Positions 13,462-56,047 of a DNA stretch of 64,000 nt are shown here, in pieces. The translations under genes and the position numbers were made by a program. Each line of letters begins with the position of its first letter. Positions within the stretch are counted from its first letter, which is position 1. The notes beneath the pieces were generated by a model. It saw nothing but the letters and a program-made list of their open reading frames with translations. It was not told the origin of the DNA and did not search any database. Source of the stretch: Amoebophrya sp. A120 (Eukaryota; Protista; Dinoflagellata); assembly GCA_905178155.1 (NCBI GenBank), contig CAJINV010000018.1, positions 476,609 to 540,608 of the forward strand, in the 5' to 3' direction.

Positions 13462-13729
13462 TATCAAATGTAAAAGTGTCTGGGTCTGGAAGAGTGCAAG
13501 ATTTGTCATTGTCATGCACATTTTGCATGACCCATGATGTCTGTGATGCCTGCCCTAGAATCACAAATTTTTTGAGGGCTTTCTGATGCGTATCCTGCAT
13601 GACAAATGCCCTCTCCGTGTAGCACAAAATCGAATCCTCTTGCTAGTCATGCAACGCAGATTTTTTTAGAATCCGAAGACAGCATCAGAAGTTGCATCCT
13701 TCCAGACCCAGACATTTTTACAATCCATA
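13462..13729. mobile_element. Introner family A outside any clear CDS
   Basis: Family A TIRs, direct repeat GACCA. Confidence 0.9.
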
Positions 13730-17733: not shown

Positions 17734-20700
17734 CTACTTTGTCCAGAAGATGATCGCCGTCCCCCGCTGCCTCCAGACCGCCTCTTCTCCGAGGCCCTTC
17801 AGCTTAAACGAGCTTGTCACCAACTGCGTGCGCGTGCTGTTGAGGTATACAGGCACCTGCCAGAACCCCGCTTGTTGAAGAGCTACGCCACTTCCCAATG
17901 CAGCCCCTTTCGTCTGCTCACTCTGCAGGACCCACTTCAGCAGTAACGGCGGCATTTCGCAGGACAGCTCGTCGCAGATTTCCAAGCACTTTGCCCGCTT
18001 GTTGACCGTGGCGCCCTCCAACGTGCAACCAGTGAGAAGCCAGCCGGTGTCGGCACTGGAGGGTTTGGATATGACAGGGCACAACTCCCCCTCCCCCTCA
18101 TTTGTCATGCAAAATCCCAAATCCAGGCGCTGCCTTGTGGCACTGTTTGCATGACAAATAATTCCGGAAGTAGAACAAATAGTACTACATTAGGAACACA
18201 AATTTGTCATGCACAGGCTCCATCTGTGCTGGTGTTTGTATTGCTGTTCATGCCATACAAGTGAGGGGCAGGGGGAGTTGTGCACTGTCATATTGGAAGC
18301 GGTGAAGCTTTGCTCGGAATCCGTGAAGATTTTAACAACCGGCTATGAAAGCCTCAGAATGGAAATCCTCAGCGTGTAAATAATTTGTGATGCATGAAAT
18401 GCGACGCAAAATAGAATGTATTGCACAGGACGCAATGGAGGCCGACTATTGTCCTTCTACGGGTTAAGAATTGGAGTGCTGATTAGCACGAGAGAAGGGC
18501 ACCCCTTTGCGTTAACCAGCATGACAGACATGCTTTGAGTGCCCGGGAAATTTTTCATGCGCAGCCTAGAAGTGGCGCTTCGACTGGAGTGCTTTTCTGC
18601 ATTACAAACTATTTCCACTTTGAGGATTTCCAACCTGAGGCTTTTATACCGGCTTGAGCTCCTCTAGGCTCCACTTGTTCTTCTGCGCCACGGCCTGCCG
18701 TATGCATTGCAAATATGTCTGGGTCTGGAAGAATACAACTTGTGATGCTGCATTTGGATTCCGAAAAAATCTGTATTGCAGGAAGAGCAAAAGTTTCGCA
18801 TTCCTCCTATGCGGAGGGGGCATCGCATTTCTCATGCAGCATGGGCATCAGAAAGCCGTCGCAATATCTGTGATGCTAGGGCATGCATCACAGACATCGC
18901 CGGCGATGCAAAATGCGCATGACAAACTTCCAGACCCAGACATATTTGCAATCCATATGCCGCGTTGCGGTCAGAAACGCCTCCGGGAACATGAGAAGGC
19001 CGACCGCGAGGGAGATGTTGATGAAGGATCCATTGTTACCCGTCGTCAGCTTCACAAGCTGCTGGACCCTGTGATTTCAGTTTGTCATGCGAAGTCGCGA
19101 TGTGAAAGTGAATCGTACCTACGTACAAAGTTTTCCATGCAAAGAAATAAACGAGACCCTACACAGTAGCACGGGAAAAGGAAAAGCCGTGCTTGATATT
19201 ATCTGTACCTATGATTGAAATCGAACACCCACTCAATGCTGCTCAGTGTCTGGACGATCGGGTACGCCTTCAGCCAGTAATCCGGTGGTAAATCCTATGG
19301 AAGTGTCAGGATTGAAATCAATAAAGTTGAAATAATCTGTGATGCACAAAATGCAAGGCACGAAAAGGCTGTCTTGCAGGGATTGCAAGTGAGGCCGATT
19401 GTGAGCCTGTTTCGAGGTTGGGATAGAGCTGCTAAAGTGGCATGACAAAGGATGCCCTCTTTCGCTAAACAGCATGACAAACTGGATTTTGACGGTGCCG
19501 AAATTTGTCATGCACCGCTTAGAAATTGGGCTTCTAACAACTGGTATCGATTTTATGCATCACAAATTTTTCAACTTTGACGATTTCAAACCGGACGCTT
19601 CCATAAATCCAAGTTTAGTTGCAGCGCGATCGCCCGCAACTCGTTCGTCATGCGCGCGTTTCCGTCGCACACTTCTTTCAGGGACGATAAGTCCGCATGT
19701 ATTCTCGCAAGCAGCTGCTGGGCCACCGCGATCTCCCGGTGGAAGCACCGCCACATCGGGTCCGATTCGTCGAAAGCGGCTGTGTTTATGTGCTCCAGCG
19801 CGTCCGGCTGGGGCAGGCCGGAGGAGATGGAGTCCAGTTTCGTGGTCAGATCTGTCAGCCAGTTGCTCATACCGGAGACTTTTTTCCGGTCTTGACCCGC
19901 CGCCGATTTATTCGCTGTCATATCCTCCTTCTTATCCAAATCATCCTGCGCCGCAGTACTGCTGCTGTCCTCCACAGATTGCAAATTCAACCAATTGGAC
20001 AAAGTGTTCATGCCCGCTAGGCTTCGCAGCATCTTCTCAGCCTGCGCGGACAGCCCCAGCCAGGCCGGCGACCCTTTCGCATCCAACATTTCGACCCACT
20101 TTTCGTAGTCGTTGAGTTTCCGCGCGTTTTCCGGGGATTTCAAGGGGACTTTCTCGTCCCGGTTTAAAAGTGACCCTCTGCGATAGACGTCGGCGTTGAA
20201 CAGTTGCTCCACGAAAGTTTTCAGAAGTTCCTTGTCGAAGTCGTTATCTATTCTACCCCCGTAAACCACCTGCACTATAATGTGCTGCAGCGCCGCCCAG
20301 GGGATCGAATTCGGGTCCAAGTTGGTCGGAAAAGAAGCTGTAGTACTGGAGCCGCCGCACGCTCTCTTGATCCAGGTGTCCACAATCGTCAGACCGCAGG
20401 TGAAGTCCGCATCGGAAAACTCGTATCGTTTTGTCCACCCGATGGGGGAGTATCGGACTCTTTCCAGCACGATCGCGTGCAGTATCGCCAAGTTGAAATG
20501 CAATCTACACCGCTCCACCGGGGGATTGTCGCAATTCGCAGAGACGAGTGGTCCCGCGAAGGATCGTTGCAAAGATGCCTTCAGCCCAGCGGGGGGCTCA
20601 AACACGTAGACCCTCGATTGCCGCATCAAGTTCGCTGGAAGCTTCGGATTAAATTCCATGCAAAGGAACAGCCGGTAATTCTCGTTCGCGGACGCCGCTA

Positions 20701-23700
20701 TTGTGCCGATCCGCTTCTCCAGATTCTTCAGCCAGTCGATGGCCAAATGCACATTTTTCAAGATCACCCACTGCCCCATCTTCGCGCCCGTCGCTATCAT
20801 TTTGTCCGCCAGGTCAAACCCCTCGCGACTCCCCATGGCCATCGAGACGATTTTGGTTTTTTTCAAGGTCGCCAAGTTCACGATCTGCGAGCTCGGATCG
20901 AAGCCGGGCTGCGAAACCATCATCATCGGACGATTTGTTCCACCCTTCTGCTGGAGTTTATCCTGAGAAAAAAATCCACCATCGATCCCCATGATCTATT
21001 TTTTGTATGACAAACAGTGGGAGTGGACTTCCTTGATGCATGTCTTGCATGACAAATTGGAAGATGCGGATAGGTGTTTTTTTTGGATAAAGTTCCATCT
21101 GCTTCTCCAAATCGAACGGTGGGATGAAGAGGAACTCCTTGCCCATGATGTCGTTCGTCAGATTCGTCAACATGGCCGGGAGTCTGTCGTTTGCCAGTGC
21201 TTTTATCAAATGCAAAAGTGTCTGGGTCTGGAAGAGTGCCAGACTTGTCATGCAGGTTTTCCATGACCCATGCGGTCTGGTATGTAGGACATAGCATGAC
21301 AGATTTGGTGAGAGTTCTATCATGCCTATCCTCCATGAGAAACTGCCTTTCGATTAGGTCAAAAGTGGACAGGAGCTTTTGGTAATCATGCAACACAGAT
21401 TTTTGCATGATTCAGATTTAGCATGACAAGTTGCATTCTTGTTCCAGACCCAGACACTTTTGCATTTGATAGCTTTCACGAGCAAGCAGTTGTACAGCTT
21501 CTCGTTCAAGTCCGCCGAATCCTGCGAAGAATTCATCGTCCCTTGCGGCGGCGAAAACCAGCCGGACGGCGGGTTTATTTGCTGCCCACCCGGAGCTGCG
21601 CTGTTGGTATCGCCGGAGGACTGGAGAAATTGCTGCCACGCGCTCGCGTTACTGATCATGTGGTCGGGCAGGCCGTAGAAGCCGGGCAAGAGAAACAAGC
21701 TCTCCATGGCTTTCAACTGTGCGTTACTCAGGTAGTTGATGCTGCCCATGGCCTTCCGCCGCGCCCGCTCTGCGTCTTTGGGGAGGTTGGTGATCAAACC
21801 GCCCTTCATGAGCAAGTTCACCGCCTGCTTTATGGCGTTCTCAACTGTTACATTCTCAACTGCTACATGGATTTGTGATGCAAGAATGGCGAAAGTGAAA
21901 GGGGTCACCTTGCGCGTCTTGCATGACAGATCTGGCAAAGATTCTCAGCCTGTTTGGCTCTTCGAGAATTTGTCATGCGAAGCAGCTTGATCGTGTCGAT
22001 TCTCATTGTGATTTTGCATTGCAAATCATGTAACAGTTGAGAATGTAACATTTGAGAACGCCATATGCTTCTCGAGCTCAAGACCGTCCATGTCCGCGCG
22101 GACCTGATTTTGTGTTCTAATCTTATGCCGGAACTTTGTCATGCGAGAGCCGGAAGCAGCATTGCGCTGTTTTATTTTCATGCGCGTCTCGTCCGGTCGC
22201 CACTAATTCTACTTTCACCAGGAGCTCCACTGTACGCTATACAAAAGTCCCTTTGCGGGGGTGCGGGTGTTGTTCCCAGGATTCGACCGTTGGCGGACCA
22301 CGGGCCTGCCGTCTGCTGTTTCAGTGACTCACTCGGGAACCTCCTTACTAGCAGGCAGAGTTTGATGGCAGCGGTGTCTTCCCGAGGCTGGGAGCGCATT
22401 TTCTGGTCAAGGGTGCGCTTCCCTGGTGCGCCGCAGCCGTGTTTCGCACACAGCCGCGTTTTTTCACGCTCTTTACATCACTGGCCCTGCCTCTGGGCAA
22501 GTGCAGCCGGTGTGCCGACGACTGCAATGATTCTCTCAGTCATGCGCGCGGCGCCAGACAAAAAACGGATGCAAAAAATAGTTGCGCGTTACAGGATTCG
22601 AACCTGTGTCCCCCAGCCGCTCGCCTAGGTCGAGAGCGGTTGCCTTCCGCTAGGTTGGTGAGTTTCCACCTACTCCCTGAGGTTCCCAAGCCCCTTTGGT
22701 GCCAGGCGGGGCTACTTCCCGAAGGCACCCTTAGTACTCAACGTTATCCCAGCTGGCGCACCAGCCCCGTGATGGATCGATCCCGGAGGTAGACTTTCGC
22801 CTCAGAACCTCTGGAGAGTTCGGCCGGGTGCATTTCCAGTTATGCTATCCGCGCGATTAAGAAGATACGGGAAAGGAAAAGGTCCCTACGCCAGAATAGC
22901 TGTGCTAAACACAATGATTCGGGCAAAAGACGAGAAAGAGGCTCGGGCAACAGAGTTTTTTTAGGCTTTAGTACTACGCCCGCAAAAATTGCACCGAAAA
23001 TGTGAATAATAAATACTCGAAGAATTATTGGGTAACTTTACAACTCAGATGCAACTATTTGATTATGTACTTCAGTACCTGCCCCAACCGCAGCGCTAAG
23101 GCCAGTCTATCTCCCGCCAACATTCCGGGACAGATGTAAGTGTAGAGGGTGCGAAAAAACAAGTTTTCGATGAAATTCCGCCTTCTCTGAAAGTCCTTGC
23201 CGAGTTTCGCGATCGCAGGGTCCGTGATGCTGACCCGGAAAATCTCGAAAAAGAAGTCCAGTGAGTATTGGTACAGGAAGTTGATACTGCCTAGAGATTC
23301 GAGAGAAAAGTAGGCTCTTGTTGCGGCAATCGCTAAACTGGTGTACTCAGCTGAAGTTCTGCTCACCTTCTCCATCGTTTCGTCAATCTTCGTGAACTGT
23401 TCCTTCAGCTCGGCCGACTCTGCTTTTATCTTCTCCATCGTGGTGATCACATTTTGATCTTCCAAAATCGACCCCTCCACGTTCGCTAGGGCGGCTAACA
23501 GCCCGTCTTCCATCGCGCGCATCTTCACTTTGAATTCTCCCTGGAGCACCAGCGCCTCGTGCCGCTGCTGGTCCACGTCGGGCCGTTCTTGCCGGAGCAC
23601 CATGTTTAGCGTTTGCGATTGTAAGCTGGCTGGTGTGATCGTGAAGTTGCAGAAGGACATATCCTGAGTAAAAGCGTCCCCATAGTACCAGTGCCAAGAT

Positions 23701-26700
23701 GGAAAATCTGCTAGACAAATCAGGCAGCTTTGGTTGTTTCGCATGACAAGTCCTCTGTCCTCGTAGTGTAATCCTGTTTGGCTAGTTCAGAAGCATCACA
23801 GATCTAGCATATCATGCTATTTCTAGCATCACAAATCCCAAACCACGACTAGAAAAAACTTTTCATGTGGCTTCGCATGAGACACTTTTTTGGCATGCAG
23901 ATTTGCATGACAAGAACTCTGGGGTGGGGATGTTTTTACTCAGAATAGGACACCCTCGAGCACAAATCCGGGGTAAACACCGCGCCCGCGTCCCGTGTCG
24001 ACAAGAAAATCTCAAAACTGGGCGAGAAATCCACCTCCTGGTCCCCCATGGTGATCATGGTTCTCCCCCCCTTCTTGTGCGTTTCCTTGTTCAAAATTCC
24101 GTTCAAAACCGGATCAAGTTTCTCCACGTCGGTCAACAAGATCGGCGTCCCGAACCGCACGCCCGATTCCAGAATCTTGTAGAACTTCGGATCCAAGAAG
24201 CTGGTTACGTGGATGTCCTTTTTGCTGTACTCCTGTTTCAGCCACTGCAGGGCTTGGCCACTTGGGTCTAAGATCAGCGGGTACCTTTGATAATTGTAAA
24301 TTATCACCGCGTTTTCCACACAGAGCTCATCATCGGGTAGCCCATTCGACACCCAGTTGAAGCGGTCTGCGGTGGTGGCCAGATAGTCCGTGATCGACAA
24401 AGATTTGGAGAATTTTATGCCCCGCTCCTCCGCTAAGAAACTTTCCCACTTTTTCAGCACCAAGTTCCTCGCGTACATGTCGAAAAATCCGATGTACGCG
24501 AGGAAACCGCCTGAAAGTAAGGTGTCTCCGTGCAGATTTAGCAATTGTTGGTCGAATTCCGCGGTGGACTCGGACCACCGCTGCTTCTCCCCAGATAAAT
24601 CGGTGATCAATTTTTCCGCCCGACTGGCGTTCTGCACGACGGATTCCATCTGCTGTTTCAGTTTCTCGACTGCCGCGACTAGTTGCGCGTATTCCTGCTT
24701 ATACGCGTTCAGTTTTTGCTCCAGCGACTCCACAACCTTCTGATTTTCGTCGATGTTTTTCTGCGACTGCTCCGCTTCCAGCTCCAAATCCGCTAGCTCC
24801 TTTCGTAATTATTGCAAGGAAAAACCCCACCTGCGCCTCCCCATATTGAAAGCGCATCCCACTGAAAGTTTGTGATGCGGATCTGTGACCACAAAGCGCG
24901 CCCGTCTTGCAGGGAGCCAAGTGCACGCGGTCCGCCACGTTCTGCCGACGAATTGTAATGCTGTAAGGACTACAGGGCAGCCGTGTACCATGCTAGGCGC
25001 CTACAGCAATAAAGGGCCCCTACCTAGGCTTGCGATCTGCGCACAGTGCTCCACTGCAAGACAAATCTGATTTGTGTACACAAATCCAGCATCACAGATT
25101 TCCTTTTCGATATGGGGAGGAGGAATTTTTCCTTTTGGTAGTAACGGCCCGATGTTCTGCAAAATGCCCGAGTACTTCAGCTGCGCCTCGACCCAAATAC
25201 CTAAGGGTCCCGCCGCTTTGCTCGCCCGGGCAATTTTTTGCGTGTCCCAGTCGGAGGATTTGGTTAGCTTCTCCGCGAACGCACGGGATCCGTCCGTGAT
25301 CGATTTTGAATCAAATGCGGTGACATTAGCGATCAGGCGCACGTCCTTCATTTCCTTGCGCGCCGCGTCCCAAGTCACGTCCCCCTCCACGTGCTTCAAC
25401 AAGATCACGAGTCCACGACACGCGATTTGGATCCCCATGGGCGCGTGTTGTATCCCGTGTAAAAACGTCCAGAGTCAGCCTGGGGATTTTGCAACACAAA
25501 CCTAGAAGTTTTGGGACTCACGCATCAGAAGTTGCAGCCCGTAGTGTAGTGCAGGTTAGCAAGGACAAACGTGGATCACAAATCCGTCTGCTTATCCTGG
25601 TTAATACAGCATTACAAATTCCAAAACACGAATAGAAACGCCTCTCATCGGGATGCACATTACAAATGTTCCTGTCATTGCAAATCTGCATCACAACTCT
25701 GGGGTGGGGATGTTTTTACAAATGATATGTTGGCCCATCTGTTATCCCACAAAAAAACTGTTTCACTGTGGTGATTTTGCAAGATCTGCATCACAAGTTT
25801 GTTACACATGACTCTGAAAATTTGTCATGCGCGCTTCCCAAGGGAAAACACGCCTGAAAATCCAATGCCTTGCAGGTGTAGCAAGACAAATAGTTCTGTG
25901 TTCCATTTTCTGCATCACAAGTTCACAGTGAAACAGTTTTTTCTTGCGATATTTGTTTCAGTTCATTCAAAGCGGAGGAGCTGATGTATGGATGTGTCAG
26001 AGTTGAAATCGACAAAGTTGAAATAATTTGTCATGCATAAAATGGATGCCAGTTGGAACCCAGTTTCCAATTGGCGCATGACAAATTTCGGCGGTCCCTA
26101 AATCTAAGGGCGCGCAGCCCACTAGCAGCAGACCGGGGCTCGAACGAAAAAACATTTTGCCCTGAAAATTTTAAAAAAATTTGATTTCTGTGCGCCGGTT
26201 CGAGAAGGCGGCTTTGGGGCGGTGTCCAGGATGCACAACTGCGACAGCGGACTTGCGCTGCATGTCCGGGAACAAGATGTGGCGTGCACATCTCTCGCCG
26301 AGCCCTGTCCGGGGAGTCGGTTTAAAATAGAAAAAAGAAGCGACCTGCGAAGCGCTTTGGCTGCCGATCTCGTGTTGATTCCAAAATAAACAAAAAGCGA
26401 CCTCCGAAGGGGCTTCGGAATCTACTACAGGTCACGCGGTTCCAAAAACCAGACCAAGAGTCGCGCCGCCGATGCCGCACGCTGCGGGCACCGCGCTCTG
26501 TAATCTAGAAAATTTTCTCCTGTGGCGGCAGGTCGGGGATGATCAGTCTCGGAAATACTCCTCCGGAATGCCATTTCGAAATGAATTCTAAAAGAAATCG
26601 ACTCCGAAAAGGCATTCCAACCACCCATTCCGACAGGGCATGTCGAAAAGGCATTCCGAAAAGGCATTCCGAAATGGCATTCCGAAAAGGCATTTCGAAA

Positions 26701-35700: not shown

Positions 35701-38700
35701 AAGGCGTAAGTTAGGTATTTTGCATGACACATGAGGGGCAGGGGGAGTTGTGCACTCTCATAAGCCTTTCCGCGGTGGCGAAACCCCGGGAGAACAGCTG
35801 GACTTCCGCGATCAAGCTCTTATTCGGTGTGATCATCGCCATTTCGCGGAACAACTGCTTCAAGTTATCCGGTAAATTGCTCCGCCCCGCACACTATGCA
35901 CTGCAAAAGCATTGCAGTAGTAGAAATCACATTACAACAAATTTACTCAACCAGAAAGATGCAGTTTGTCATGCTGGACTGCAGAATAGAGTATGAGATT
36001 TGTCATGCGTAACTGCAGTTCCAATTACTCGGAGTGCGATACTTTTGCATTGGATACATACCCCGGGTTCATGGTTATGAAAATCCCCACCCCCGGATTC
36101 AATCGGACCTCCTTTCCGAGCAGTTCTATCGTCTTCATCTGCTTCCGGAGCCCGGTCTGGATGGTCAAAATCTGCTCGGTATCAACTGCAAAAGTGTCTG
36201 GGTCTGGAAGATTGCCAGGCTTGACATGCATATTTTGAATGACCCATGATGTCTGTGATGCATGCTCTGCATCACAGATTTTTCGAAGGCTTTGTGATGC
36301 CTCTACCGCATGAGAAATGTCCTCTCCGCGTAGCACAAAGTGGAGTCCTCTTGCTGGACATGCAATACAAATCTTTTTAGAATGCAGAGACAGCATCACA
36401 AGTTCAGAATCTTCCAGACCCAGACATATTTGCATTTCATACTCGGAGCAAGCAGACAGCATCTGCTCCTCCAGTCGATTAAACTCGTCGAAACAGCCCC
36501 AGGCGTATCCACAGGAAAAAACACCCATCCCCATGCATTTTTTGCATGACAGATAGTGGATCTTATTCATGTTTTGCGTAACAAATTGGATGGGGATGGT
36601 TTTTTTTCTCTTGATAAGGCGCCGACCTGACACAAACCGACAAAAATCCGGCCCATGGACTGGAAGTCGAAGGTTTCGTCGCAACAGAAAACCAGGACAA
36701 AATACCCCATTTGCGCACCCAAAGCCTTCACGGATTCGGTTTTCCCGGTGCCGGCCGGTCCAAACGGGTTCCCGCCCATCTTCATGTGCAAGGCCTGCGT
36801 CATCGTGAGAAAACAGCGGTCCGTCAGCGGTGTTTGGCACAGTTTCTCCGCCATGCCCAAGTACTCAAACCCGTAATTCAAAGACGCGTTGGTCATTTCC
36901 ACGCGACAAGCCGTGCTCATGTCCCGCGTCGCGTTCGCGTCCCAGTACACGCGGAGTAGCTGCAGCCAGTCGAAGTTGTCCGCCTTGTTGATCCTTTTCG
37001 CGGCGAGTTCCCGACTGACGTCCCGTTGGTGCACCATTTCGGTGATCAACTGGGCGAGTTTGGTTAAGAAATTCCTACTGATGTTTGGCTCCAGGACCTT
37101 TTTCGCTAACACGTCCAGCGTGTGAATGCAGTCGGACGCGACAGACTCGGTGGTTTTGCCGGCTTTCAGAAAGCTTTCCACCCGGATCGTCCACACGATC
37201 TGCGAGGCGATCAACATCAGTTGACAGGGCTGCTGATCCACCCAGGCGGTGAATTCTTGATCGGAACTTGGGTCGATGGAGGCAAGAGCCGGCCAGGCGG
37301 TACCTGATTTTGATGGTGGAAAACATTTCTGTTGCGGAAAGTAAAGATAAAGAACCGACTGGGACTGACAACATCACACTGTCATGCACCAAAAAACACA
37401 TTAACCATAAGTACAGAAATCTTTAAATCGATACTCAATCTCGCCGACAATGCAGTTCTTATTGCGGTCTCCACCTTCGTCAGCCAAACGTGGATGCTAG
37501 GATCTTCGGAGATTACCACTGGTTTCTCAAATTTCACCTCCTCATTCTCCCGGCTCCGCATCACCGTAATCGAATCCCCTTCATTCTCCGTTCCAAACTG
37601 CGCCACCCCAGCAAACATCTTCGCCAAGTGATGCCCGAGGACCGTGACGTCCCGGCTGTTGCCGATAATTTCGAGCAGGTCCTCGTCGCCGATAAAATAG
37701 AACCGCGCGAACTGGATTCTCTGCTTTTCCAGGTAGTCTCCCAGCGCTTTCTGCACCTTCCCGAGATTATCCTGGATCTTCGTCAAGATCTTTTCCAAAT
37801 TCGCGATCTGGATAACGTCGAGGACTTTCGGTTTTTGTGATGCTTTTTTGCAAATGGACGTGAATTCCGTGTCAACCTGCTTAAACCGATTGTATTCCTG
37901 GACCAACAAGGTCTGGATGTCTGCCGACCCGAAGAAGATTCCCTCGAGGTACACCCACTTCCGTTGCACGTCCATCCAGATGTCCATCAAAGTATTCACT
38001 TTCCGTAATTTTTCGTCCCATATGCATTGCAAAAGTATCGCACTCGTATAAATGCATCACAAATTTCCTCAGCATGAGAAATAAAATTTGTTATGCGGAT
38101 TTAGCTTTAATGCATGATTGCAATACGAGTACGATACTTTTGCACAGGATATCCCAGGTCGTCGCCATTTCTTCGAACGCCTTGTAGAACGGAGACATTT
38201 TCATCGACGCGAAGGAGTTCAAATGCTCCTCGACCTGCGCGAACAGCTCGTCCCAACCGCGGATGAGCTTGCACCGGTTTTTGTACAAAACGAGCTCCAG
38301 TTCGTAGTTCGTCCACAGCTCCTTCACTTCTTTCATAAACTCCTGCAGTGCCATCTCCCCCTGCGCGAGTTGGAGCTGCTCCCGCACCGGTTTTTCGCAA
38401 TTCACCCAATCGACTTTTTCCCATAAATCACCCAAGGTTAAGTGTGTATACCCCTTGTCCTTCAGATTGATCACGGTCAAGATGCTGTCCCAGTGCCGCT
38501 CTTTCAGCGCGTCGGTTTTCAAATCTGTTAAGAGAATGTTGAGCTTGATGAGCTTGTGGATCTTATCCACCATATTCGCGTAGCTGTCGTACTGCTGGAT
38601 TTTATCCGGCATGTGCTTCAGCTTATGAAAGCCTCAGGTTTGAAATCCCCAAAGTGGAAATAATTTGTGATGCAAAAAAACGACTCCAGTAGAAGCGCCA

Positions 38701-41700
38701 TTTGTAGTCGGCGCATGACAAATTTTCCGGGCACTCAAAGCGTGTCTGTCGTGCTAGTTAGGCAAAGGGGTCTGACCCTTCTGTCGTGCTAATCAGCAGC
38801 CCAATTCTTCACCCCTAGCAGGACAATAGTCGGCCTCCATTGTGTCATCTGCAGCGCAGTCTTTTTTGCCTTGCATTTCATGCATCACAAATCATTTCCA
38901 CTTTGGGCATTTCCATTCTGAGGCTTTCATACAGCTTGTCCTGTAGAAGATCCTCGTCCAGAATTTGCCGGATTTTTTTCGGAATCACCGCGGTCCAGAG
39001 CTTATCCTGTGCAAAAGTATCGTACTCGTACTAATCGCGTTTATGCATTTACAAATCTCTTTACTGAGGCAGATCCGCATTGCAAATTTGATTTGTAATG
39101 CTAAGTGAATTTGTAATGCAATTTATACTAGTACGATACTTTTGCAGAGGATAGAGCTGTTCCTTGAGCGAATTCAGCTCCTGGTCGACCGAGTTCAGCT
39201 GCGTCCACACCTCCTTCAGCGATTGGATCTCCGCGGCGAGTATGGATTGCAATTATGTCTGGGTCTGGAACAGTGGAACTTGTGATGCGTGTCTGGCATT
39301 CCTGGAAAATCTGTGTTGCAGGAGCAGCACATACAAGAGGAGCTTCCTTCGTCATGCAAAAGCGCAAGAATTTGTGACGCGTGCTAGGCATCAGCAGGCG
39401 TCTCAAAAACTTGTCATACTTGGCTCCCATTGCAAGCGCTTCAATCATGCTCAATTCAGCATCACAGGTTCTTTCCAGACCCAGACATATTTTTTGCATT
39501 CCATAGCGAGTGGCTGGAGCTGCTTTTCCAAATTCGCGGTGGAACGGTTCAGCACTGACTGAATCGTATCCTGTGCAAAAGTATCGCACAATCATGCACT
39601 ACAAATTTTTTTTTGAAGGTAAATCCGCATTACAAATTTTATTTCTCAACATGCTGCGGAAATTTGTAATGCATTTATACGAGTACGAGGATACTTTTGC
39701 GGTTCATAAATCGCGTCCCCAATGCCGGAACATTCCGTTTGCATCTGCTCCACCTTCAACGCGTATTGGCTGCAAATCTCCAGCGCCTTCTCACAAGACT
39801 CCACGACGTGGATCGGCTTGTCCTTCGTCCAATCGGAGTAGCAGGAGCGGACTTCTTCGGTAATCTTCTTCTCGTGTCGCTCGATCCCGGTTGACAGTGA
39901 ACAACTCTTCCTCCCCCTCGTTTCAGTATGGCAGAAACAGCAACACTAGCAACAGCAGCTATGTGGCTTCCGCATGACAAATCTGTGCACGGATAATTGT
40001 AGTACTGTTTGAGGTTGTTGGTTCCAAAAAAATTTGGCATGCAGACACTGCCTCAGCAGGGCAGGACGTGGACTTGGTATTTTGCATCACAAAGGAAGGA
40101 GGGGCACGGAAGGCTGTGCACTTTCATATCCCGGCGCGGAGCGACGGCATTTCCCGCTCCATCACGAGCGATTTCCGGTCTAGGACGGTCAGTAACGAGT
40201 CCCAATCCGACGCTTGCTGTTCCAAAGACGGGAAGTCATCCGGAAAGGTATACCCCCGGTTCCGCATAAGCGTCTTTGTACAGTCGAGCACCAACTGCAC
40301 CTGGTCGTTCAAATCTTGCTTTTTCTTTTTCAATCCCTGCACGATCGTGATCGATTTCAGCGTTTCCGGTGACCCCGGCTCAAAGCTGGACTGCTCGAGG
40401 CTCGTGCGCAATTGCCGCAAGTCCTGCACTAATCTCGTGCTGGAATTGTAGACTCGCTCGCCAAACTCGTGCAAAATGTCCCGCTTCCACAAGTCGTATC
40501 TTCTCTATGACAGTGCACCACTCCTCCTTTATGTAGCGTACACGGCTGCAATACAAACACCAGCGCACGTGGCGCCTGTGCATGACAAGTTCATGCGCCG
40601 AGAAGTAAGTACAGTCCTGCTTGGGATTTGTCATGCAAACAGTGCCACAAGGCAGCAGCCAAAATGTAGAGTTTGCATGACAAAAGAGGGGGTGTTGTGC
40701 ACTTTCATATTGTCGTGATCTTCGTGGAAACCTTGCTGTGGTCGATGATAAGTGGTCCGAAAGTATTAAACAAAAAAGTGTTAACGTCAACGTTTTTGGG
40801 GCATTGCAGTCATGCATGACAAATTTTCGCTATCATGCATGCTATGCAATACAAATTTGGGCATCGTTTCTCGTGCAGTCCTGCATGCCAAATTCCGTTA
40901 ACGTTAACACTTTTTGGTATGATAGAAAGCTTTCTCCCGGTTTTCCTTGTCGTTTTCCAATTGCGCCCGGTTCTGCTTGATCTCCTGCAAAAGTTGCTGC
41001 CACTTGACCAAGTCATCGCCGAGCTTCTCAAAAACCTGCTCCGCGTTGATGTCCCACAATGCTTGGTACTGCAGCCAGGCGTTCGCATACGCGTCCATCT
41101 GCAAAAGTTGCTGCTCAATCGCGTCGTAGGCGTCCAGGAAGATTTTTTCGGAGAGGGAAGACAGGAGGAAGTTATACGTTTTCTTCTTCGACAAACCCTC
41201 CTTCAATTTCACTGCGAGCATGGTGGTGTTTTTCTCGTTCGTGTTTCGCGCGAAGTCGTCATACCGATTCGCGACCAATTGTGGCAAGGAGCAGACAATC
41301 CCGAGCGTCTGGTGAAAATGCTGCATCCAATGCTGTCGGGCGGACTCCTTGGGCGGATTCAAAGCGAGCAGCTGCTGGTTCATTTTCAATTCGTGAACCG
41401 TTGGCTCGTCAATCAAGCTCGTCCCCGCGTTGGGGTACCGGGTGAACTGTTTCACCCACTCGGTCACGAGTTGCTCCAGCCGTTGCTTCAGCTTCTGCTC
41501 GATCTTTTCCTTAAGGTGCGACGAAGCCCAGTACTCCAAATTCGAAAAATTCTTCAAGTTCATGTCATCGATAAGACTCTGCATTTGGTTAAACACCGAC
41601 TTGAAATAGGCCCGGGCGGAACTGCGGTCCAGATTCGTGTTGTCGTTCAGAGTTGCTTGATTGGCGCCGGAATTCTGGGCGAAATCGGAGGAGGTTTTGT

Positions 41701-44700
41701 CCGCTATGATTTCATCGGGTGCAGCACCAAGATCGCCTGGGTATCGAGGTGGAGAGTTTGATAATTGATGAACAATTTCAAGTACTAGTAAGTACCCCAG
41801 AAGCGAGCACTAGCATTAGCAGTTATAGCATCAGAAATACATCGGGACGAGTTCTTCTTCACATCTGCGGAGCGAGCGTCACAAACAAGCTGCAACGAAG
41901 TTGTACTTTTGTTACCTTCCACAGCTATTTTCGCCACAGCAGTTGTAGACCCGGCGACTTTAATTTTCGCTTTGTCAACAGCGCCGCCGTCGTCATCTGT
42001 AATATCGTAGTCGTCCATATCCAGGAAAAAACACCCGTCCCCATCCATTTTTTGCATGACAAATAGTGGATTTCATGCATGTTTTGCATGACAAATTGGA
42101 TGGGGATGGGTGTTTTTTCCTGGATAGTCCAGTTTCATGATCAGCCGGTCCATATCGTTCACGCACTTGCTCACTTCTGATACCCGGTCTTGGAACAAAT
42201 AAATTTCCGAGCACAGTTTTTGCGCGTACGACTCCACCTTGTCGTGAATCCACTTCAAACCCATACCCTGCTGAATCAGGCCCTGCACATCCGCGTGGTG
42301 CTGGGCCATGAGCAGTTCGATCGTCGGCGTGAACTCGCGTTGTACCACCTGCATGTACGTTTTGCACGCTTCCTGCAAGCCGTAGGACACGGGGTAGGAG
42401 AGTCTCGCCTCGTCCGCCATGACTTTCAAGCTGTACGGCACGCGGAATTGCAACGCCTGGAGATTCCGAACTTCCTTGAACAGAGTAGTGATTGTCGCGT
42501 CCGTATTGACCGTCAGCTCGTAGTTTTTGGCCTGCACAGTGATGTCAAAGAGCCGCTCTTTCGTCATATCGAAGGGTTTCTGCGCCTTCACGTCCTGCAT
42601 CCACTGCTCAAAAAGCTGCACGGCCGAGCACTTCTGCAAAAAGGCATCTACGCTCTGCTTGATCTTCGACCCGTCCACATGTTGGTCCCACCCGCGGCCG
42701 AGCACGTCTTCCACGCGCCTTAAGCAGATCGTAAGCTTTCTTTCGATCTGCTTGGCGAAGATCACACTGCCGGTGATTGGTGGGATGTCTCGGGCTAACG
42801 TCACCTGGGAGGACTTGCTGTGTTCGAACTTTTCCTTGAACTTCGTCTGCAGCTTGTTTACCTCTTGCTTAATATTCTCCAACAGCGTCGATTGGTACTC
42901 CTGAATCGCGCCACGGATTCTGCTGCGAAAGAAGAGCGCGTTGAATTTCTGGAAGGATTTATCATTTGTAAAAACGTCCCCACCTCCGCCCCAGAGTTGT
43001 AATGCAAATGCGCAAGAATGACAGGAACGTTTGTAGTGCGCATCTCCATGAAAGGCATCTTCAGTAACGCTCTAAACAGGATCAGAAAAAAATCTCTTTC
43101 TCATGCGCCTTTCCCTGCTAGCCAGCACTACACTGCAGATGGAAGTTTGTCATGCAGAACTCCTAAAACTTGAAGATCTGTGTTGCAGACTTCCCGTCTT
43201 GACTATGGTGTGGGGACGTTTTTACATGGGATAGGATTGAAACATGTCGTCCGCGTTTTTCGCCTTGGAGAGCTGGTTCTGCAGTTTCGCAATGACGAAA
43301 GTCTCAACCCGGTCGACCCGCTCGTTGTACTTCTTCTGCGCGAGGTCCCACTTCGCGGTCCCTGTTACTGATATTCCCAGAAAATCAACCATCCCCATCC
43401 ACTTTTTGCATGACAGACACAGAATTTTATACATGTTTTGCATGACAAAAACTAATGGGGTGGGGATGGTTAATTTTCAGGGAATAACTGACGTGTCTAA
43501 CACGTCGAAGGACTGGCTCGTGCTGATCTGCGGACTGATATGACAGTGCACAACGCCCCCTCCCCCTCATTTGTATGGTATGAACAGCAATACAAACACC
43601 AGCGCACATGGAGCCGATGCATGACAAATCTATGTGCCCCCCAATGTAGCACTGTTTGGGCTTCCAGAATTTGTGATGCAAACAGTGCGACAAGGCAGCA
43701 GCTGGATGTGGGATTTTGCATGACAAATGAGGGGGAGGCGGGGAAGTTGTGCGCTTTCCTAACTGGCTTTACTCGCGGCTCCGTCGGACGAAGAGGTGGA
43801 CGTAGCGGCAGCTCCTCCTATTGCACTTGTCGTCATGAACACCTGGTCATACGCGTCTTGCAACTCTTTGTTCAGATCTATCTCCGGTACGGCGGAGTCG
43901 AAACCACCCGCGCCCTTTTCCTTCTTCTTGCGGGTAGAAGAAGTACTCTCTCCGCCTTTCAACATCGCGGACGAAGCTGCACCTCCTCCGCTACTCGATG
44001 GGGACGAGAAGATCTTTTTTAACACATCCGCCATCTTTTGGTGCTGCCTCCGGAACAGCCTGATGTCGTCCACCCGGTCTTGTAACGACTGGTGCTCGCA
44101 GTTGATCTTGTGCGGCGGGATCTCCTATGTAAAAACGTCCCCACCCCATAGTCAAGATGGGAAATCTGCTACACAAATCACCCAGCTTTGGCTGTTGCGC
44201 ATGACAAATTTGGGCTCGTAATGTAGTCACGTTTAGCTAGTGAAGTAGCATCATAGATCCAGTTTCTGATGCTAATTTGAGCATCACAAATCTCAAAACA
44301 CCACTAGAAAAAGCTTCTCGTGCGTCTCCGCACGACAAATGTTTTTAGCATGCAGATTTGCATTCCAACTCTGGGGAGGTGGGGACGTTTTTACACAGGA
44401 TACGGCCGCTCGCTGGTCCCTCGTCGCTTCACTTGATCCCGGACCAGCTCCTTAAACTGGCGGATTTCCTTATGGAAGCGTCAGGATCGAAATCCACAAA
44501 GTTAAAATAATTTCTCATGCATAAATTGCAAGGCATGCAGTGCCTCTCATTGCAGGGATGGCAAGTGAGGCCGACTGTCAGCCTGTTTGGAGTCTACGAT
44601 AGAGCTGCTAAAGCAGCATGACAAAAGACGCCTTCTTTCCCTAAACAGCACGACAAATTGGATTTAGTAGATGGCGCTAAAATTTGTCATGCGCCGCTTG

Positions 44701-46532
44701 GAAATTGGGCTTCCAACTGGAGGTATCGATTTTATGCATCGCAAATTTTTCAATTTTATCGATTGCGATCCTGACGCTCCCATATTCCTCCTCCCACAGC
44801 CTAAACAGCTTCTCCGACTCCCGGGTGCCTTCCTCGAACGTCTGATAGTCCAGCATCATCCACTTTTGCGTGGACAGGATTTTCAGAATCTGGGTCTTCA
44901 AATCCCGCGACAACGCCTCCGCCAGCTGAAACGCCCGCGCCAAGGGGTAAGCGGTGGCGTTCTTCAGCTTTTTCAAATGGTTGAACAGCGTCTTAATCGC
45001 GTTCTGCAAGTGCACGAAGCTTGTCGCGGCGAGTAGGTCTTGTACCGGGAACTCCCTGAGTAAAATCAAGTAGTTGGACACCGAGTCCATCGCTTTCTGC
45101 AGCCCCGTGTCAGATTCGAAAGACACGCTGGTCAGAAACCGTTTTCCCAGACGGAGCACCCCCAGCGTGAACTCGACGTCCGGAGATTGCAGTTGGTTCC
45201 GGACGTGAAAAAGCGCCTTCTCTATGCCGACCCAGAAGTTCACCTCCGACATTGCCGTCCCCGTGATGGAGCCGCTCGTGCCCCCGGGCTGGAAGTACTT
45301 GGTCAATTTCTGGATATCCTTCATCCACTGGTTCACCCCGGAGTGCAACACGTTCAACGTGTTTACCTCCAACAGGGTGCCGGAATACTTCTCCGGGGTT
45401 GGCATCGGCCGGTTTTCCCGTTTTGCTTGCTCGAACAGTTTCAGCACAATTGGGTCAACCTTTAACACGATCTCGGGAATCTGAATCGTCTGGCCGCACT
45501 GTTGCAGCGCGATCCCCAACTCCGCGAGCTTTTTTTGCACGATTTGCTCCGCATCGTTGGCCTGCTCCTGCTCGGACTGTTGCTGAAATATCCTGTGCAA
45601 AAGTATCGTACTAGTAGAAATAGCATGATAAATTTTTCCAGAAGGAGAAATGGAATTTGTAATGCTGAATTGGCTAAGAAACCGGATATGTCATGCAGGG
45701 CTGCAATTCATACGAGTACTACATTTTTGCAGAGCATATGAAAGGAACTTTGATTTCCTGTTTGACTTTGCTCTTTCTCCTTCGCCGCGGACTTGATCGC
45801 GAAGAGCGGCGCGACTGCGGTCTGGAGGTACATCAAAACCGTGTCGTACGGTGTATCCTGCTCGAGAGTGAGCAGCAAAACCGCTTTCGCGACCGACTTC
45901 GGGTACTGCTCTTGAAAGATCGGGCGTTTCAGAATCGCGAGAACATCCTGGTTGAGAACATTACTAGGGGACGAATTAGGCATAGGCTGCTCCTGTTGCA
46001 GCTGTTGAGACGCAGACAGTCGCGGGGTCCCGCCCGAGGCTCTTTCTTGGAAAAAATCACCTTGCATATTATTGCCTGATGTTAGAGATGAACTGCTACT
46101 TGGTAGGTTGTAACCGCTGCTACTTGATGTCCTTGTGGTCATGGCAGAAGGGATGTCCAGAGCCACGATCAAATCCTCATCGGCGGCGGTTGTGCTACCA
46201 CCAGCTCCTGCCCCGGACGAAATATTAAGTGATGGTGATGCCTTCTTCCCGAAGAACAGTGCGGGCGTTTCTTGCACCGCGTTGGCCACAAAGAGCTTCA
46301 GCTTCTCCACCACGTCCCGCTGTTTTAACCGCGTCGCAATTTTGCTTCGGTTCAGCTCCAGCGTCGTGGGCAGCAGATTGGTCAAGTACTCTATCAAAGG
46401 GTCCACAGCGAGAGAGCCGGTCAGGGTAGTAGTGCCAGTTCCGCTTCCAGAAGTCCCGCCAGGTAGAAGACCACCTCCCCCTCCAGGCGCGGAGGTCCCG
46501 CCACCCCCGAGGAGCGTGTTTGAGGAGGCCAT
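17734..46532 (-). CDS. DYNC1H1: Cytoplasmic dynein heavy chain, 54 exons, ~4972 aa
   Basis: P-loops [24 protein letters not shown] and GVAGAGKT. Motifs [67 protein letters not shown] and [11 protein letters not shown] are present, several only after junction repair. ATG at 46532, TAG at 17734-17736. Removing 49 TIR elements (each +5 bp) and 4 GT-AG introns leaves 14,919 nt, a multiple of 3 (hand count). Confidence 0.96.
18070..18292. mobile_element. Introner family B (dynein intron)
   Basis: TIR TATGACAG.GCACAACTCCCC, direct repeat TTGGA. Confidence 0.9.
18344..18648. mobile_element. Introner family C
   Basis: TIR TATGAAAGCCTCAG, direct repeat CCGGC. Confidence 0.9.
18701..18957. mobile_element. 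Introner family A
   Basis: 31-bp TIR, direct repeat TGCCG. Confidence 0.9.
19069..19208 (-). other. Canonical GT-AG intron of dynein
   Basis: AG|GTACAG...CACAG|G restores [12 protein letters not shown]. Confidence 0.85.
19296..19605. mobile_element. Introner family D
   Basis: TIR TATGGAAG.GTC.GG, direct repeat AATCC. Confidence 0.9.
20959..21089. mobile_element. Introner family E
   Basis: TATCC..AAAAAA ends, direct repeat GAGTT/AAGTT. Confidence 0.8.
21204..21471. mobile_element. Introner family A
   Basis: Direct repeat GCTTT. Confidence 0.9.
21831..22065. mobile_element. Introner family F
   Basis: TIR TATGGCGTTCTCAA, direct repeat TGCTT. Confidence 0.9.
22104..23078 (-). other. Canonical GT-AG intron (975 nt) hosting a tRNA-like RNA gene
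   Basis: CAG|GTACTG...ATCAG|GTC restores [13 protein letters not shown]. Confidence 0.85.
22583..22854 (-). ncRNA. tRNA-framed structured RNA (272 nt) with a ~207-nt domain in place of the anticodon loop
   Basis: 5' half GCGCGGA TA GCAT-AACTGGAA-ATGC A CCCGG. 3' half CTGGG GGAC ACAGG-TTCGAAT-CCTGT AACGCGC A. A box, B box and a T6 terminator at 22578-22573 are present. Acceptor stem is 5/7 paired. Confidence 0.75.
23660..23947. mobile_element. Introner family G
   Basis: TIR TAT.CTGAGTAAAA.C.TCCCCA, direct repeat GGACA. Confidence 0.9.
24810..25140. mobile_element. Introner family H
   Basis: Degenerate TIR, direct repeat GTAAT/GTAAC, restores IGPLRKEL. Confidence 0.85.
25451..25727. mobile_element. 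Introner family G
   Basis: Direct repeat TGTTG. Confidence 0.9.
25743..25951. mobile_element. Introner family I
   Basis: TIR TATC.CA..AAAAAACTGTTTCACTGTG, direct repeat TCTGT/TTTGT. Confidence 0.88.
25987..27272. mobile_element. Introner family D carrying a nested transposon
   Basis: Family D ends, direct repeat TGATG. It is 1286 bp versus ~310 bp for its siblings. Confidence 0.9.
26105..27076. mobile_element. Non-autonomous DNA transposon (972 bp) with 7-bp TSD
   Basis: TIR TAAGG..GCGCAGCCCACTAGCAGCAGACC at both ends, TSD CTAAATC (26098-26104 and 27077-27083), internal GGCATTCCGAAA tandem repeats. Confidence 0.9.
27291..27570. mobile_element. Introner family G
   Basis: Direct repeat CGCCT. 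Confidence 0.9.
28098..28367. mobile_element. Introner family G
   Basis: Direct repeat GGTGC/AGTGA (3/5). Confidence 0.88.
28472..28670. mobile_element. Introner family I
   Basis: Direct repeat CAGTG, restores SSPALFNRC. Confidence 0.9.
29005..29216. mobile_element. Introner family J
   Basis: TIR TATGCA..A.AAAA.TGCGTAAGTGTAA, direct repeat AATCG. Confidence 0.9.
29289..29584. mobile_element. Introner family A
   Basis: Direct repeat CATGT. Confidence 0.88.
29735..30045. mobile_element. Introner family D
   Basis: Direct repeat AATTC. Confidence 0.9.
30101..30361. mobile_element. Introner family A
   Basis: Direct repeat ATCCT. Confidence 0.9.
30462..30767. mobile_element. Introner family D
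   Basis: Direct repeat CGTCC. Confidence 0.9.
30854..30998. mobile_element. Introner family K
   Basis: TIR TATCCTGTGCAAAAGTATCGCACTCGTA, direct repeat ACCTG. Confidence 0.9.
31622..31817. mobile_element. Introner family J
   Basis: TIR TATGCAAAGAA, direct repeat TTTGA. Confidence 0.9.
32473..32793. mobile_element. Introner family H
   Basis: Direct repeat ACACT. Confidence 0.9.
32830..33025. mobile_element. Introner family K with perfect internal palindrome
   Basis: Direct repeat GAAGT, 59-bp arms around 32935. Confidence 0.9.
33148..33419. mobile_element. Introner family A (left end TTT)
   Basis: Direct repeat AACCG. Confidence 0.88.
33474..33719. mobile_element. Introner family F
   Basis: Direct repeat GTGTT. 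Confidence 0.88.
33901..34053. mobile_element. Introner family K
   Basis: Direct repeat AAACC/GAACC, restores ENLNSVLDDNK. Confidence 0.9.
34092..34308. mobile_element. Introner family I
   Basis: Direct repeat CCACG, restores FDGDVDPEW. Confidence 0.9.
34381..34642. mobile_element. Introner family A
   Basis: Direct repeat TGATA. Confidence 0.9.
34708..34960. mobile_element. Introner family A (left end TGT)
   Basis: Direct repeat GTCTA, restores YGRLDPTTLEW. Confidence 0.9.
35552..35762. mobile_element. Introner family B
   Basis: Direct repeat AGCCT. Confidence 0.9.
35895..36056. mobile_element. Introner family K
   Basis: Direct repeat CACAC/CATAC, restores NPGYAGRS. Confidence 0.9.
36180..36441. 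mobile_element. Introner family A
   Basis: Direct repeat CTCGG. Confidence 0.9.
36506..36616. mobile_element. Introner family E
   Basis: Direct repeat AGGCG, restores [11 protein letters not shown]. Confidence 0.9.
37304..37434 (-). other. Canonical GT-AG intron of dynein
   Basis: A|GTATCG...ATCAG|GT, frame restored (ARLSTAWPAL). Confidence 0.8.
38021..38151. mobile_element. Introner family K
   Basis: Direct repeat TCCCA. Confidence 0.9.
38624..38931. mobile_element. Introner family C
   Basis: Direct repeat CAGCT. Opposite orientation to 18344-18648. Confidence 0.9.
39003..39153. mobile_element. Introner family K
   Basis: Direct repeat GAGCT. Confidence 0.9.
39241..39505. mobile_element. 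Introner family A
   Basis: Direct repeat GCGAG. Confidence 0.9.
39567..39708. mobile_element. Introner family K
   Basis: Direct repeat AATCG. Confidence 0.9.
39890..40128. mobile_element. Introner family B (degenerate left end)
   Basis: Direct repeat TCCCG. Confidence 0.85.
40506..40709. mobile_element. Introner family B
   Basis: Direct repeat TTCTC/TTGTC. Confidence 0.88.
40764..40924. mobile_element. Introner family L
   Basis: TIR TAT..AAAAAGTGTTAACGT.AACG, direct repeat GAAAG. Confidence 0.9.
41737..41795 (-). other. Canonical GT-AG intron (59 nt) of dynein
   Basis: TGG G|GTACTT...CCCAG|GC removes an in-frame stop and restores the frame. Confidence 0.75.
42018..42126. mobile_element. 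Introner family E
   Basis: TIR TATCCAGGAAAAAACACCC.TCCCCATCCA, direct repeat GTCCA. Confidence 0.9.
42960..43233. mobile_element. Introner family G
   Basis: Direct repeat GGATT. Confidence 0.9.
43372..43486. mobile_element. Introner family E
   Basis: Direct repeat ACTGA. Confidence 0.9.
43539..43761. mobile_element. Introner family B
   Basis: Direct repeat ACTGA/ACTGG. Confidence 0.88.
44121..44402. mobile_element. Introner family G (left end TCT)
   Basis: Direct repeat CGGGA/CGGCC (3/5). Confidence 0.87.
44471..44784. mobile_element. Introner family D
   Basis: Direct repeat TTCCT. Confidence 0.9.
45589..45738. mobile_element. Introner family K
   Basis: Direct repeat TGAAA. Confidence 0.9.
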
Positions 46533-55806: not shown

Positions 55807-56047
55807 GCTGCTGTAGAAGTACTGCTTTGGTATGAGTTTAATAATAAAACCTGTTCTCTGAAGATGAAAATGCTCGATAGAAGAAGGTAGTTGGTCTTGT
55901 TGACCAAAAAAGTTTTTGCGCCAAAAGTTTTTGCGCCAAAAGTCAGAAGACTTCGCGTTTAAAATTTTGGGTAGAACTGCAGCACAGCCACAGTTAAGTT
56001 AGGCGAAATAATTGATTGCTCGTTTATAAATGCGGATGCTGTAGTTT

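Follow-up and report, generated by a model that had tools for sequence, protein, structure and literature searches.

We examined a window of 64,000 nucleotides from the dinoflagellate Amoebophrya sp. A120 (contig CAJINV010000018.1, positions 476,609 to 540,608; all coordinates below count from the first letter of this stretch) that contains, on the minus strand at 46532-17734, a cytoplasmic dynein heavy chain gene of 54 exons encoding 4,932 aa. Of the 53 interruptions in this gene, 49 are transposon-like elements bounded by terminal inverted repeats (TIRs), and the other four are GT-AG introns. The elements are removed precisely at the RNA level without GT-AG signals, beside ordinary introns in one transcript, as supported by the 16 of 49 elements whose removal was seen. 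Natural mismatches between the duplicates that flank the elements suggest that all are likely cut at a single fixed register, and, on balance, we lean toward excision at this register by a relaxed spliceosome that reads +2 U and +3 A and needs neither G at +1 nor an AG acceptor.

Eleven runs were listed for the window, and no run registered as RNA is among those that contain it. The removal of the elements was traced in four RNA-type contig sets (X3, X4, X7 and X8), all from one sample and classed as RNA by a tool's guess, that were compared with the window over 19700-30400. An X3 contig of 6,664 nt lacks all 15 elements located in this stretch together with the 975-bp GT-AG intron at 22104-23078 (GTACTG...CAG), and the same joints recur in X4; the gene model and the X3 contig are identical at 4,495 of 4,495 nt, with no differing letters in the listed pieces. 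The missing elements, all on the minus strand as are the other elements of the gene, are those at 20959-21089 (131 bp), 21204-21471 (268 bp), 21831-22065 (235 bp), 23660-23947 (288 bp), 24810-25140 (331 bp), 25451-25727 (277 bp), 25743-25951 (209 bp), 25987-27272 (1286 bp), 27291-27570 (280 bp), 28098-28367 (270 bp), 28472-28670 (199 bp, missing even though a retained copy would leave the frame open), 29005-29216 (212 bp), 29289-29584 (296 bp), 29735-30045 (311 bp) and 30101-30361 (261 bp). A sixteenth element, at 31622-31817 (196 bp), is absent from a second X3 contig that skips 31617-31817, and an X1 contig continues from the interior of the same element into the exon. Altogether, each of the 16 elements (of 49) whose junctions could be read in RNA-type contigs is absent from them; each of the 16 junctions removes exactly the element plus 5 bases, and none can be read as GT-AG in any register. 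The X1 contigs, which possibly are the window's own source, keep both elements and GT-AG introns, and one of genomic type wholly covers the 246-bp element at 33474-33719. A first-pass annotation of the window had proposed that precise non-GT-AG removal coexists with spliceosomal introns in the same pre-mRNA, and the loss of 15 elements and a GT-AG intron from one RNA-type contig bears this out; the comparison of RNA with the gene that it called for, made here on RNA-type contigs, found neither retained elements nor GT-AG usage at any of the 16 junctions. Two raw RNA runs from 2026 (X9 and X10) contributed 175 and 2 reads, respectively, with partial matches concentrated at element ends, and were uninformative on the dynein gene. 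In the X9 reads, element ends at 34417-34467 and 34611-34643 are joined to foreign sequence (152 and 70 loose ends, respectively), and these loose ends correspond to a related element within another transcript.

The gene itself was rebuilt from the window alone, by combining a scan for inverted repeats with flanking 5-bp repeats and a reading of the gaps, and the resulting model reproduces the earlier count of 49 elements among 53 interruptions, 48 of them 109-331 bp long and one of 1286 bp. Excision of every element along with one copy of its duplicate leaves 14,799 nt that encode 4,932 aa with a single terminal stop. The product shows 39% identity over 4,777 columns to the full-length dynein P0027, a near-full-length match to cytoplasmic dynein heavy chains; the exons encode the Pfam domains DHC_N1, AAA_6, Dynein_heavy and AAA_lid_11, and four P-loops are found at the expected places. 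At 34 of the 53 junctions, the alignment is ungapped in at least five of 10 homologs, and several of these junctions fall within near-invariant motifs, in agreement with the previous claim that removal of an element plus one duplicate restores conserved dynein motifs. Retention of any single element disrupts the frame in 47 of 49 cases. All four GT-AG introns start with GTA; apart from the 975-bp intron, these are located at 19069-19208 (140 bp, GTACAG...CAG), 37304-37434 (131 bp, GTATCG...CAG) and, as predicted, 41737-41915 (179 bp, GTAACA...CAG). Low-complexity stretches at 41737-42017 and 45950-46230 have few or no counterparts in dynein homologs.

Because a perfect duplication allows any placement of the border, the exact exon-intron boundaries of most elements are hidden, and the register k, defined as the number of upstream-duplicate bases that are kept, can be read only where the two duplicates mismatch. 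This is the case in nine of the 49 elements, four of them within the RNA-compared stretch; the other 40 are uninformative. At the joint 20954/21091, where the duplicates of the 131-bp element at 20959 differ at position 5, the RNA has the downstream base, so that the cut lies at or before position 4 (k ≤ 4), whereas at the joint 24804/25141, the upstream base at the mismatched position 1 of the 331-bp element is kept (k ≥ 1). The joint 28093/28369 involves the element at 28098, which has two mismatches, and retains the upstream base at position 1 and the downstream base at position 5 (1 ≤ k ≤ 4). For the element at 25743, mismatched at position 4, the contig picks up again at 25951 once four exon letters have passed, and no mismatch is listed, so that the upstream base 4 is kept and the cut falls at position 4 or later (k ≥ 4). 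The 48 letters that separate the listed pieces agree in sum with the gene model. A fifth constraint comes from homologs: in the element at 35895-36056 (162 bp), mismatched at position 3, only the upstream base yields the Tyr that is present in 10 of 10 homologs (k ≥ 3). The homologs are undecided on the other four non-synonymous mismatch cases, and on the element at 40506-40709 (204 bp, mismatch at position 3), they are uninformative. The only value that fits all five constraints is k = 4; a register common to all elements would then be N-TAT...ATA-NNNN, and we infer that such a single register likely applies throughout. We found no paper that sets a fixed register for introns of Amoebophrya or Syndiniales, in a search outside of which most subscription journals and the figures S19-S25 of Farhat et al. 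remained.

To examine the conservation of the element ends, we used a related assembly, JACKZZ01, from which a scan for the TIR pattern yielded at least 155 loci (L001-L155; 511 kb merged) with 415 elements of the same families among the matches listed. By megablast, 43 of the 57 elements in the window (49 in the dynein gene and eight outside it) match these loci at 79-97% identity. The element detector recovers 45 of the 49 dynein-gene elements (an earlier version with an A-run filter recovered 37 and missed three families), and in a chance control, 10 real stretches yielded 94 matches and their reversed sequences 2. Transcript strand was called with a codon model that, held out on the window, was right for 46 of 49 elements and for 43 of 45 confident calls. 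With ends paired blind to the terminal three bases, we obtained 432 elements, 349 of which have an assigned strand. In these 349 elements, the terminal TA is broken in 2 cases at the transcript 5' end, compared with 17 at the 3' end (p=7e-4); the loci alone give 2 and 14 (by gene strand, 0:3 and 2:11), the earlier detector gives 1 and 14 of 314, and flipping of whole loci gives p=0.005. The third terminal base shows no bias (6 versus 3). If k = 4, and only then, the conserved 5' TA corresponds to donor +2 T and +3 A, as in the canonical GTA. Position +1 shows no excess of G (64 observed versus 61 expected among 201 elements), and the acceptor is AG in 13 of 201. Thus, +1 and the acceptor are free of sequence constraint, and, given k = 4, +2 U and +3 A are under constraint on the transcript strand.

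A further strand-dependent signal was detected inside the TIRs of the largest family, where, among elements with G at position 15 of just one end, the 3'-role end has it in 32 and the 5'-role end in 6, irrespective of the orientation of the element. This bias ranks first among 122 pooled tests and survives correction; the G places a C behind an A that lies 19 bases ahead of the acceptor, makes the hairpin weaker and may mark a branch region. In the loci, 101 of 201 elements have junctions between codons at k = 4 (or k = 1), with phases 101:51:49, compared with 17 of 49 in the dynein gene of the window; this phase-biased insertion occurs without a base bias within the duplication. The identity between nearest neighbors has a median of 88% and in no case reaches 98% (296 of 432 elements have a full-length neighbor), so that the sample shows no very recent burst.

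The first-pass annotation proposed a separate non-GT-AG removal system for these elements. We rank it below a relaxed spliceosome because, at the inferred register, the bases conserved in a strand-specific way are precisely +2 T and +3 A of the canonical donor. Under the relaxed-spliceosome reading, which we hold to be somewhat the better bet, the spliceosome would catalyze excision while still reading donor +2 U and +3 A, without a need for G+1 or an AG acceptor, and either the TIR hairpin or a protein that binds it would substitute for intron definition and set the acceptor four bases beyond the 3' TIR. Farhat et al. (PMC7789003) reported nearly all spliceosomal proteins along with U2, U4 and U6, but detected no U1. 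In Table S4 of the same work, all nine top non-canonical ends of A120 are NT-NN and all nine of strain A25 are TT-NN, and the A25 repeats, which differ from those of A120, start with TTA followed by two purines, with TT as the leading donor and a free acceptor (PMC7789003). This start resembles GTARR with +1 changed, so that +2 T and +3 A appear to be kept in two strains, a pattern more readily explained by a relaxed spliceosome than by a dedicated nuclease. The yeast P complex has U+2 paired with A51 of U6, G+1 with the acceptor G-1, and A-2 with the branch A (10.1101/212811). The base retained at +2 is the one that contacts U6, and accordingly, G+1 and G-1 could relax together. U6 also contacts donor +3.

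Several points weigh against excision by a relaxed spliceosome at one register. The values k = 1-3 are excluded by a single RNA junction, that of the element at 25743, which was read from the joint table and not from raw reads; the informative RNA junctions are only four, and the RNA-type runs represent one sample with a tool-guessed RNA status. When mismatched duplicates of the related assembly were scored by codon likelihood, no mismatch created a stop codon and no signal emerged, with upstream-better to downstream-better counts of 10:6, 6:7, 6:3, 8:4 and 4:3 at positions 1-5, respectively. Eight of the nine A120 ends in Table S4 of Farhat et al. are also NN-AN, so that the table could combine alignments placed at k = 1 with others placed at k = 4. 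No branch site was found in the elements, the motif that they share having no strand bias, and selection for stable hairpins is not evident from the TIR mismatches (G-U 102 versus A-C 132; U-G 93 versus C-A 93). The conserved UA could equally be a nuclease site. Finally, no transposase was detected in the window, by a Pfam scan of open reading frames (ORFs) and an Atlas search, or among the long TAT..ATA units in the 511 kb of loci, the ORFs of which were not Pfam-scanned.

The strongest competing explanation, to which we assign an appreciable but clearly smaller chance, is a separate endonuclease and ligase, as in the nonconventional introns of euglenids, that would recognize the TIR hairpin and cut at distances of 1 nt on its 5' side and 4 nt on its 3' side, preferring UA at the 5' cut. 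The lack of a G at +1, of AG and of a branch motif is in keeping with such enzymes, and 38 of 48 elements fold end to end, as expected from the TIRs alone (no shuffle control was run); moreover, the paired signature in Euglena is likewise asymmetric, with 3 free bases on the 5' side and 5-6 on the 3' side, and the introns there exit as circles. However, the strand-biased terminal bases are the canonical donor bases only, in two strains with different TIRs, the TIR mismatches show no preference for wobble pairs, and a tunicate U2 spliceosome is reported to process non-GT-AG introns derived from miniature inverted-repeat transposable elements (MITEs) (review PMC11282704).

An improbable alternative is that there is no fixed register at all, such that both cuts slide jointly within the duplication, guided by structure or by exon pairing, with the four junctions agreeing on k = 4 by chance. 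Each junction alone does permit a range, 40 of 49 are uninformative, and the legend to Fig. 3 of Farhat et al. (PMC7789003) describes the position of the splice sites with respect to the hairpin as variable; nevertheless, the 5' TA is selectively conserved, as would be expected if the distance to the cut is fixed, and no alternative base is listed at the four mismatched sites (although contigs drop rare variants). Very unlikely is the possibility that the elements are lost from the DNA by somatic excision or that the mRNA comes from an intronless copy. The elements do have the anatomy of transposons, and a minor element-free DNA form could go unseen in contigs that drop rare variants, but the contig without elements is free of the GT-AG intron as well and shows no letters other than those of the window's exons, the X1 contigs (possibly the window's own source) contain elements as well as GT-AG introns, and the conservation of the ends tracks the direction of transcription. 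Least plausible of all is ordinary splicing via cryptic GT-AG sites near the element ends, for which in-frame alternatives lie no more than 10 bases away in 11 of 49 elements and no more than 20 bases away in 35 of 49, but which is refuted at the 16 RNA junctions, where exactly the element plus 5 bases is removed and no register reads GT-AG, and is possible for the elements at 30854 and 33901.

The anatomy of the elements is that of MITEs: these are short, non-coding sequences with TIRs and a target site duplication (TSD) of fixed length that are inserted in either orientation, the two orientations not differing from 50:50 in any of the 10 families that have five or more members, and the transposon origin that was proposed previously is supported. 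The duplication is exactly 5 bp, as claimed, and is perfect in 40 of 49 elements, with one mismatch in seven and two in two; no element shows a duplication of 3, 4, 6, 7 or 8 bp. The description of the ends as uniformly TAT...ATA with TIRs of about 10-30 bp holds for the type of termini and had to be amended otherwise: both termini are perfect in 43 of 49 elements, and the TIRs span 5-40 bp (median 29; 48 elements). Across 114 element ends, positions 1-3 are T in 113, A in 110 and T in 110, and A is found in 83-99 at positions 11-14, an A-run that is missing in three small families. Similarly, the absence of GT-AG signals is complete at k = 4 (0 of 49), and in some sliding register, GT-AG can be read in two elements, at 30854-30998 (145 bp) and 33901-34053 (153 bp, duplicates mismatched at position 5), and GC-AG in two more, at 27291-27570 and 35552-35762 (211 bp).

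At the low-coordinate end of the gene, four elements have perfect duplications, at 18070-18292 (223 bp), 18344-18648 (305 bp), 18701-18957 (257 bp) and 19296-19605 (310 bp). Deviant termini are found at 33148-33419 (272 bp, 3' end AAA), 34708-34960 (253 bp, 3' end ACA), 39890-40128 (239 bp, 3' end AAC), 43539-43761 (223 bp, 5' end TAG, duplicates mismatched at position 1) and 44121-44402 (282 bp, 3' end AGA, duplicates mismatched at positions 1 and 2). The remaining elements of the gene are at 30462-30767 (306 bp), 32473-32793 (321 bp), 32830-33025 (196 bp), 34092-34308 (217 bp), 34381-34642 (262 bp), 36180-36441 (262 bp), 36506-36616 (111 bp), 38021-38151 (131 bp), 38624-38931 (308 bp), 39003-39153 (151 bp), 39241-39505 (265 bp), 39567-39708 (142 bp), 40764-40924 (161 bp), 42018-42126 (109 bp), 42960-43233 (274 bp), 43372-43486 (115 bp), 44471-44784 (314 bp) and 45589-45738 (150 bp). 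The 1286-bp element is a 307-bp family member that holds a nested TIR insert of 974 bp (26104-27077, strand not assigned) with its own, different 77-bp TIRs (78% alike) and one tested ORF without a Pfam match; its flanking repeat is 5 or 7 bp depending on the choice of border, and no match to it was found in the related loci. Outside the dynein gene, the window contains eight TAT..ATA elements of the same families, at 2670-2934, 13462-13729, 14640-14965, 48058-48320, 48413-48668, 49002-49264, 63056-63320 and 63363-63581, three of which have mismatched duplicates.

The elements had been assigned to about 12 unrelated families, a view that is not sustained. Clustering of the 57 elements of the window gives 13 clusters at 50% coverage that merge into three at 25%, and the families do not appear to be unrelated because the motif GCATNACA, or a close variant, is common to all 49 dynein-gene elements. 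This motif occurs 156 times in the 14,455 bp of the 57 elements and once in 14,799 bp of exons; the GT-AG introns contain three occurrences, all in the sense orientation, with three of the four introns carrying a sense copy. The copies are often spaced 31-32 bp apart, and outward-pointing copies cluster about 40, 50, 70 and 80 bp from the ends; a period of 10.25 scores in a test of helical phasing, as do periods near 8, a weak signal given that family members are not independent. There is no strand bias (460 versus 467), and the motif is therefore read as a putative, and likely, binding site of the mobilizing protein rather than a branch site. An obligatory branch site is ruled out by the lack of strand bias, and 61 of 314 elements have no strict copy in the sense orientation.

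Insertion would be carried out in trans by a DDE transposase, likely related to integrases given the 5-bp duplication and TA..TA ends, that would bind the GCATNACA repeats. Since both ends start with TAT, the insert provides N-TA whichever way it is oriented and whatever the target, so that an element landing anywhere in an exon would function as an intron from the outset. The search for the mobilizer itself, which was to be sought among long TIR elements encoding a transposase, returned none in the window or in the at least 155 related loci (511 kb, locus ORFs not Pfam-scanned). Pfam recognized no family in the 13 non-dynein ORFs of the window, which include long minus-strand ORFs without a match at 2852-5116 (754 aa), 53323-55998 (891 aa) and 59665-62436 (923 aa), and an Atlas search with the two longest (53323-55998 and 59665-62436) gave no usable match. 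Eight long TAT..ATA units are listed in the related loci, of which three multi-kb ones are internal repeats paired across exons and one that was read carries a GC-rich insert. At 505-1608 of the locus L018, a 1,104-bp element combines family ends and a perfect duplication with a GC-rich repetitive insert. The TIR pattern had 0 matches in viral contigs.

The 49 inserts match the published introner elements of Amoebophrya A120, and the phenomenon has been known since 2021 (PMC7789003), in line with the statement in the first-pass annotation that inverted-repeat introners with short direct repeats occur in this genus. As described there, the introners start with TAT, followed by a variable middle of seven bases and an A-run at positions 11-14, are bordered by short direct repeats (3-5 nt; 5 bp in the legend to Fig. 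S19), measure about 240 bp, form repeated families in the genome, are mixed with GT-AG introns in individual genes, are supported by RNA and contain no internal transposase (PMC7789003). That paper states that the border is unknown and that there is no dinucleotide signature, and raises the idea of an alternate mode of splicing, perhaps involving a new subunit; the fixed register, the 5'-biased conservation of TA and the shared internal motif reported here are absent from the available text of that work (PMC7789003). Gozashti et al. (2025; PMC12130899) describe A120 introner families that are mostly 'TIR DNA, unknown superfamily' (22 of 58 rows), with tens of introns per gene; in the accessible material, the automated splice-site calls are inconsistent across families (co-option of both sites, the 5' site or the 3' site; 22 of 58 rows), and family 38, with TIRs and integrase-like ORFs, is a candidate mobilizer. 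The text supplements of that paper contain no TIR sequences. A review (PMC11282704) reads the case as an adaptation of the spliceosome, so that the general idea is in print.

Among other systems, the nonconventional introns of euglenids share with the A120 elements a TIR hairpin, TSD-like repeats, the lack of GT-AG, a longer free 3' end and the presence of spliceosomal introns alongside (PMC12501133, PMC11282704). Their signature, N3-CDG...CHG-N5-6 with a purine at the exon start, is, in contrast, not found in the elements, which have N-TAT...ATA-N4 matching a canonical donor. The non-canonical introns of Fritillaria borealis are similarly MITE-derived, with TIRs and a TSD, and are processed by a modified U2 spliceosome, but prefer AG-AC and AG-AT ends, whereas here +1 and both acceptor bases are free (PMC11282704, PMC13326754); the elements also depart from the GT/GC donor and AG acceptor of U2 introns, with 0 of 49 being GT-AG at k = 4. 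With respect to the likely source of the elements, 5-bp duplications are produced by Ginger2/TDD, TA..TA ends are found in IS3EU/GingerRoot and TNT..AYA ends in IS481EU (PMC2836005, PMC10045372). As described in these papers, none of these groups combines TAT..ATA with a 5-bp duplication as a rule, Ginger having TGT ends, IS3EU a 6-bp duplication and IS481EU duplications of 4, 15 or 25 bp; the elements thus fit each superfamily in part and have the typical termini and TSD of none.

Apart from the elements, the minus strand at 22575-22856, inside the 975-bp GT-AG intron, carries a candidate tRNA-framed RNA of about 280 nt with an A box, a B box, a cloverleaf whose anticodon loop is replaced by hairpins totalling about 190 nt, and a T run. 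ARAGORN gives no match to this RNA, the Rfam tRNA model scores 18 bits, below threshold, and the fold has a z-score of -1.95; it could be a short interspersed nuclear element (SINE), a pseudogene or an uncharacterized RNA polymerase III transcript. Rfam and ARAGORN over the window return nothing at threshold. The region at about 5900-9700 is a GC-rich array of short repeats in both orientations with GGCCATCACTTT-like units.

The natural mismatches between duplicates reveal a border that the duplication otherwise hides and that is reported as unknown in the literature, so that what is added to the published picture is a testable border rule together with a shared motif, and the open question becomes a defined lariat-versus-circle experiment. 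If the register holds genome-wide, it would supply the exact ends for such assays, correct tens of thousands of annotated borders and show which contacts of the spliceosome are dispensable; it would also account for the low cost at which transposons can fill the exons of a genome. We tentatively propose, with less confidence than the relaxed-spliceosome reading alone, that Amoebophrya has a U1-less spliceosome in which the sequence requirement shrank to U+2 and A+3 and an acceptor four bases from the TIR, and that one transposase system marked by GCATNACA at 31-32 bp spacing exploits this so that every insertion, whatever its orientation or target, is born as a precise intron.

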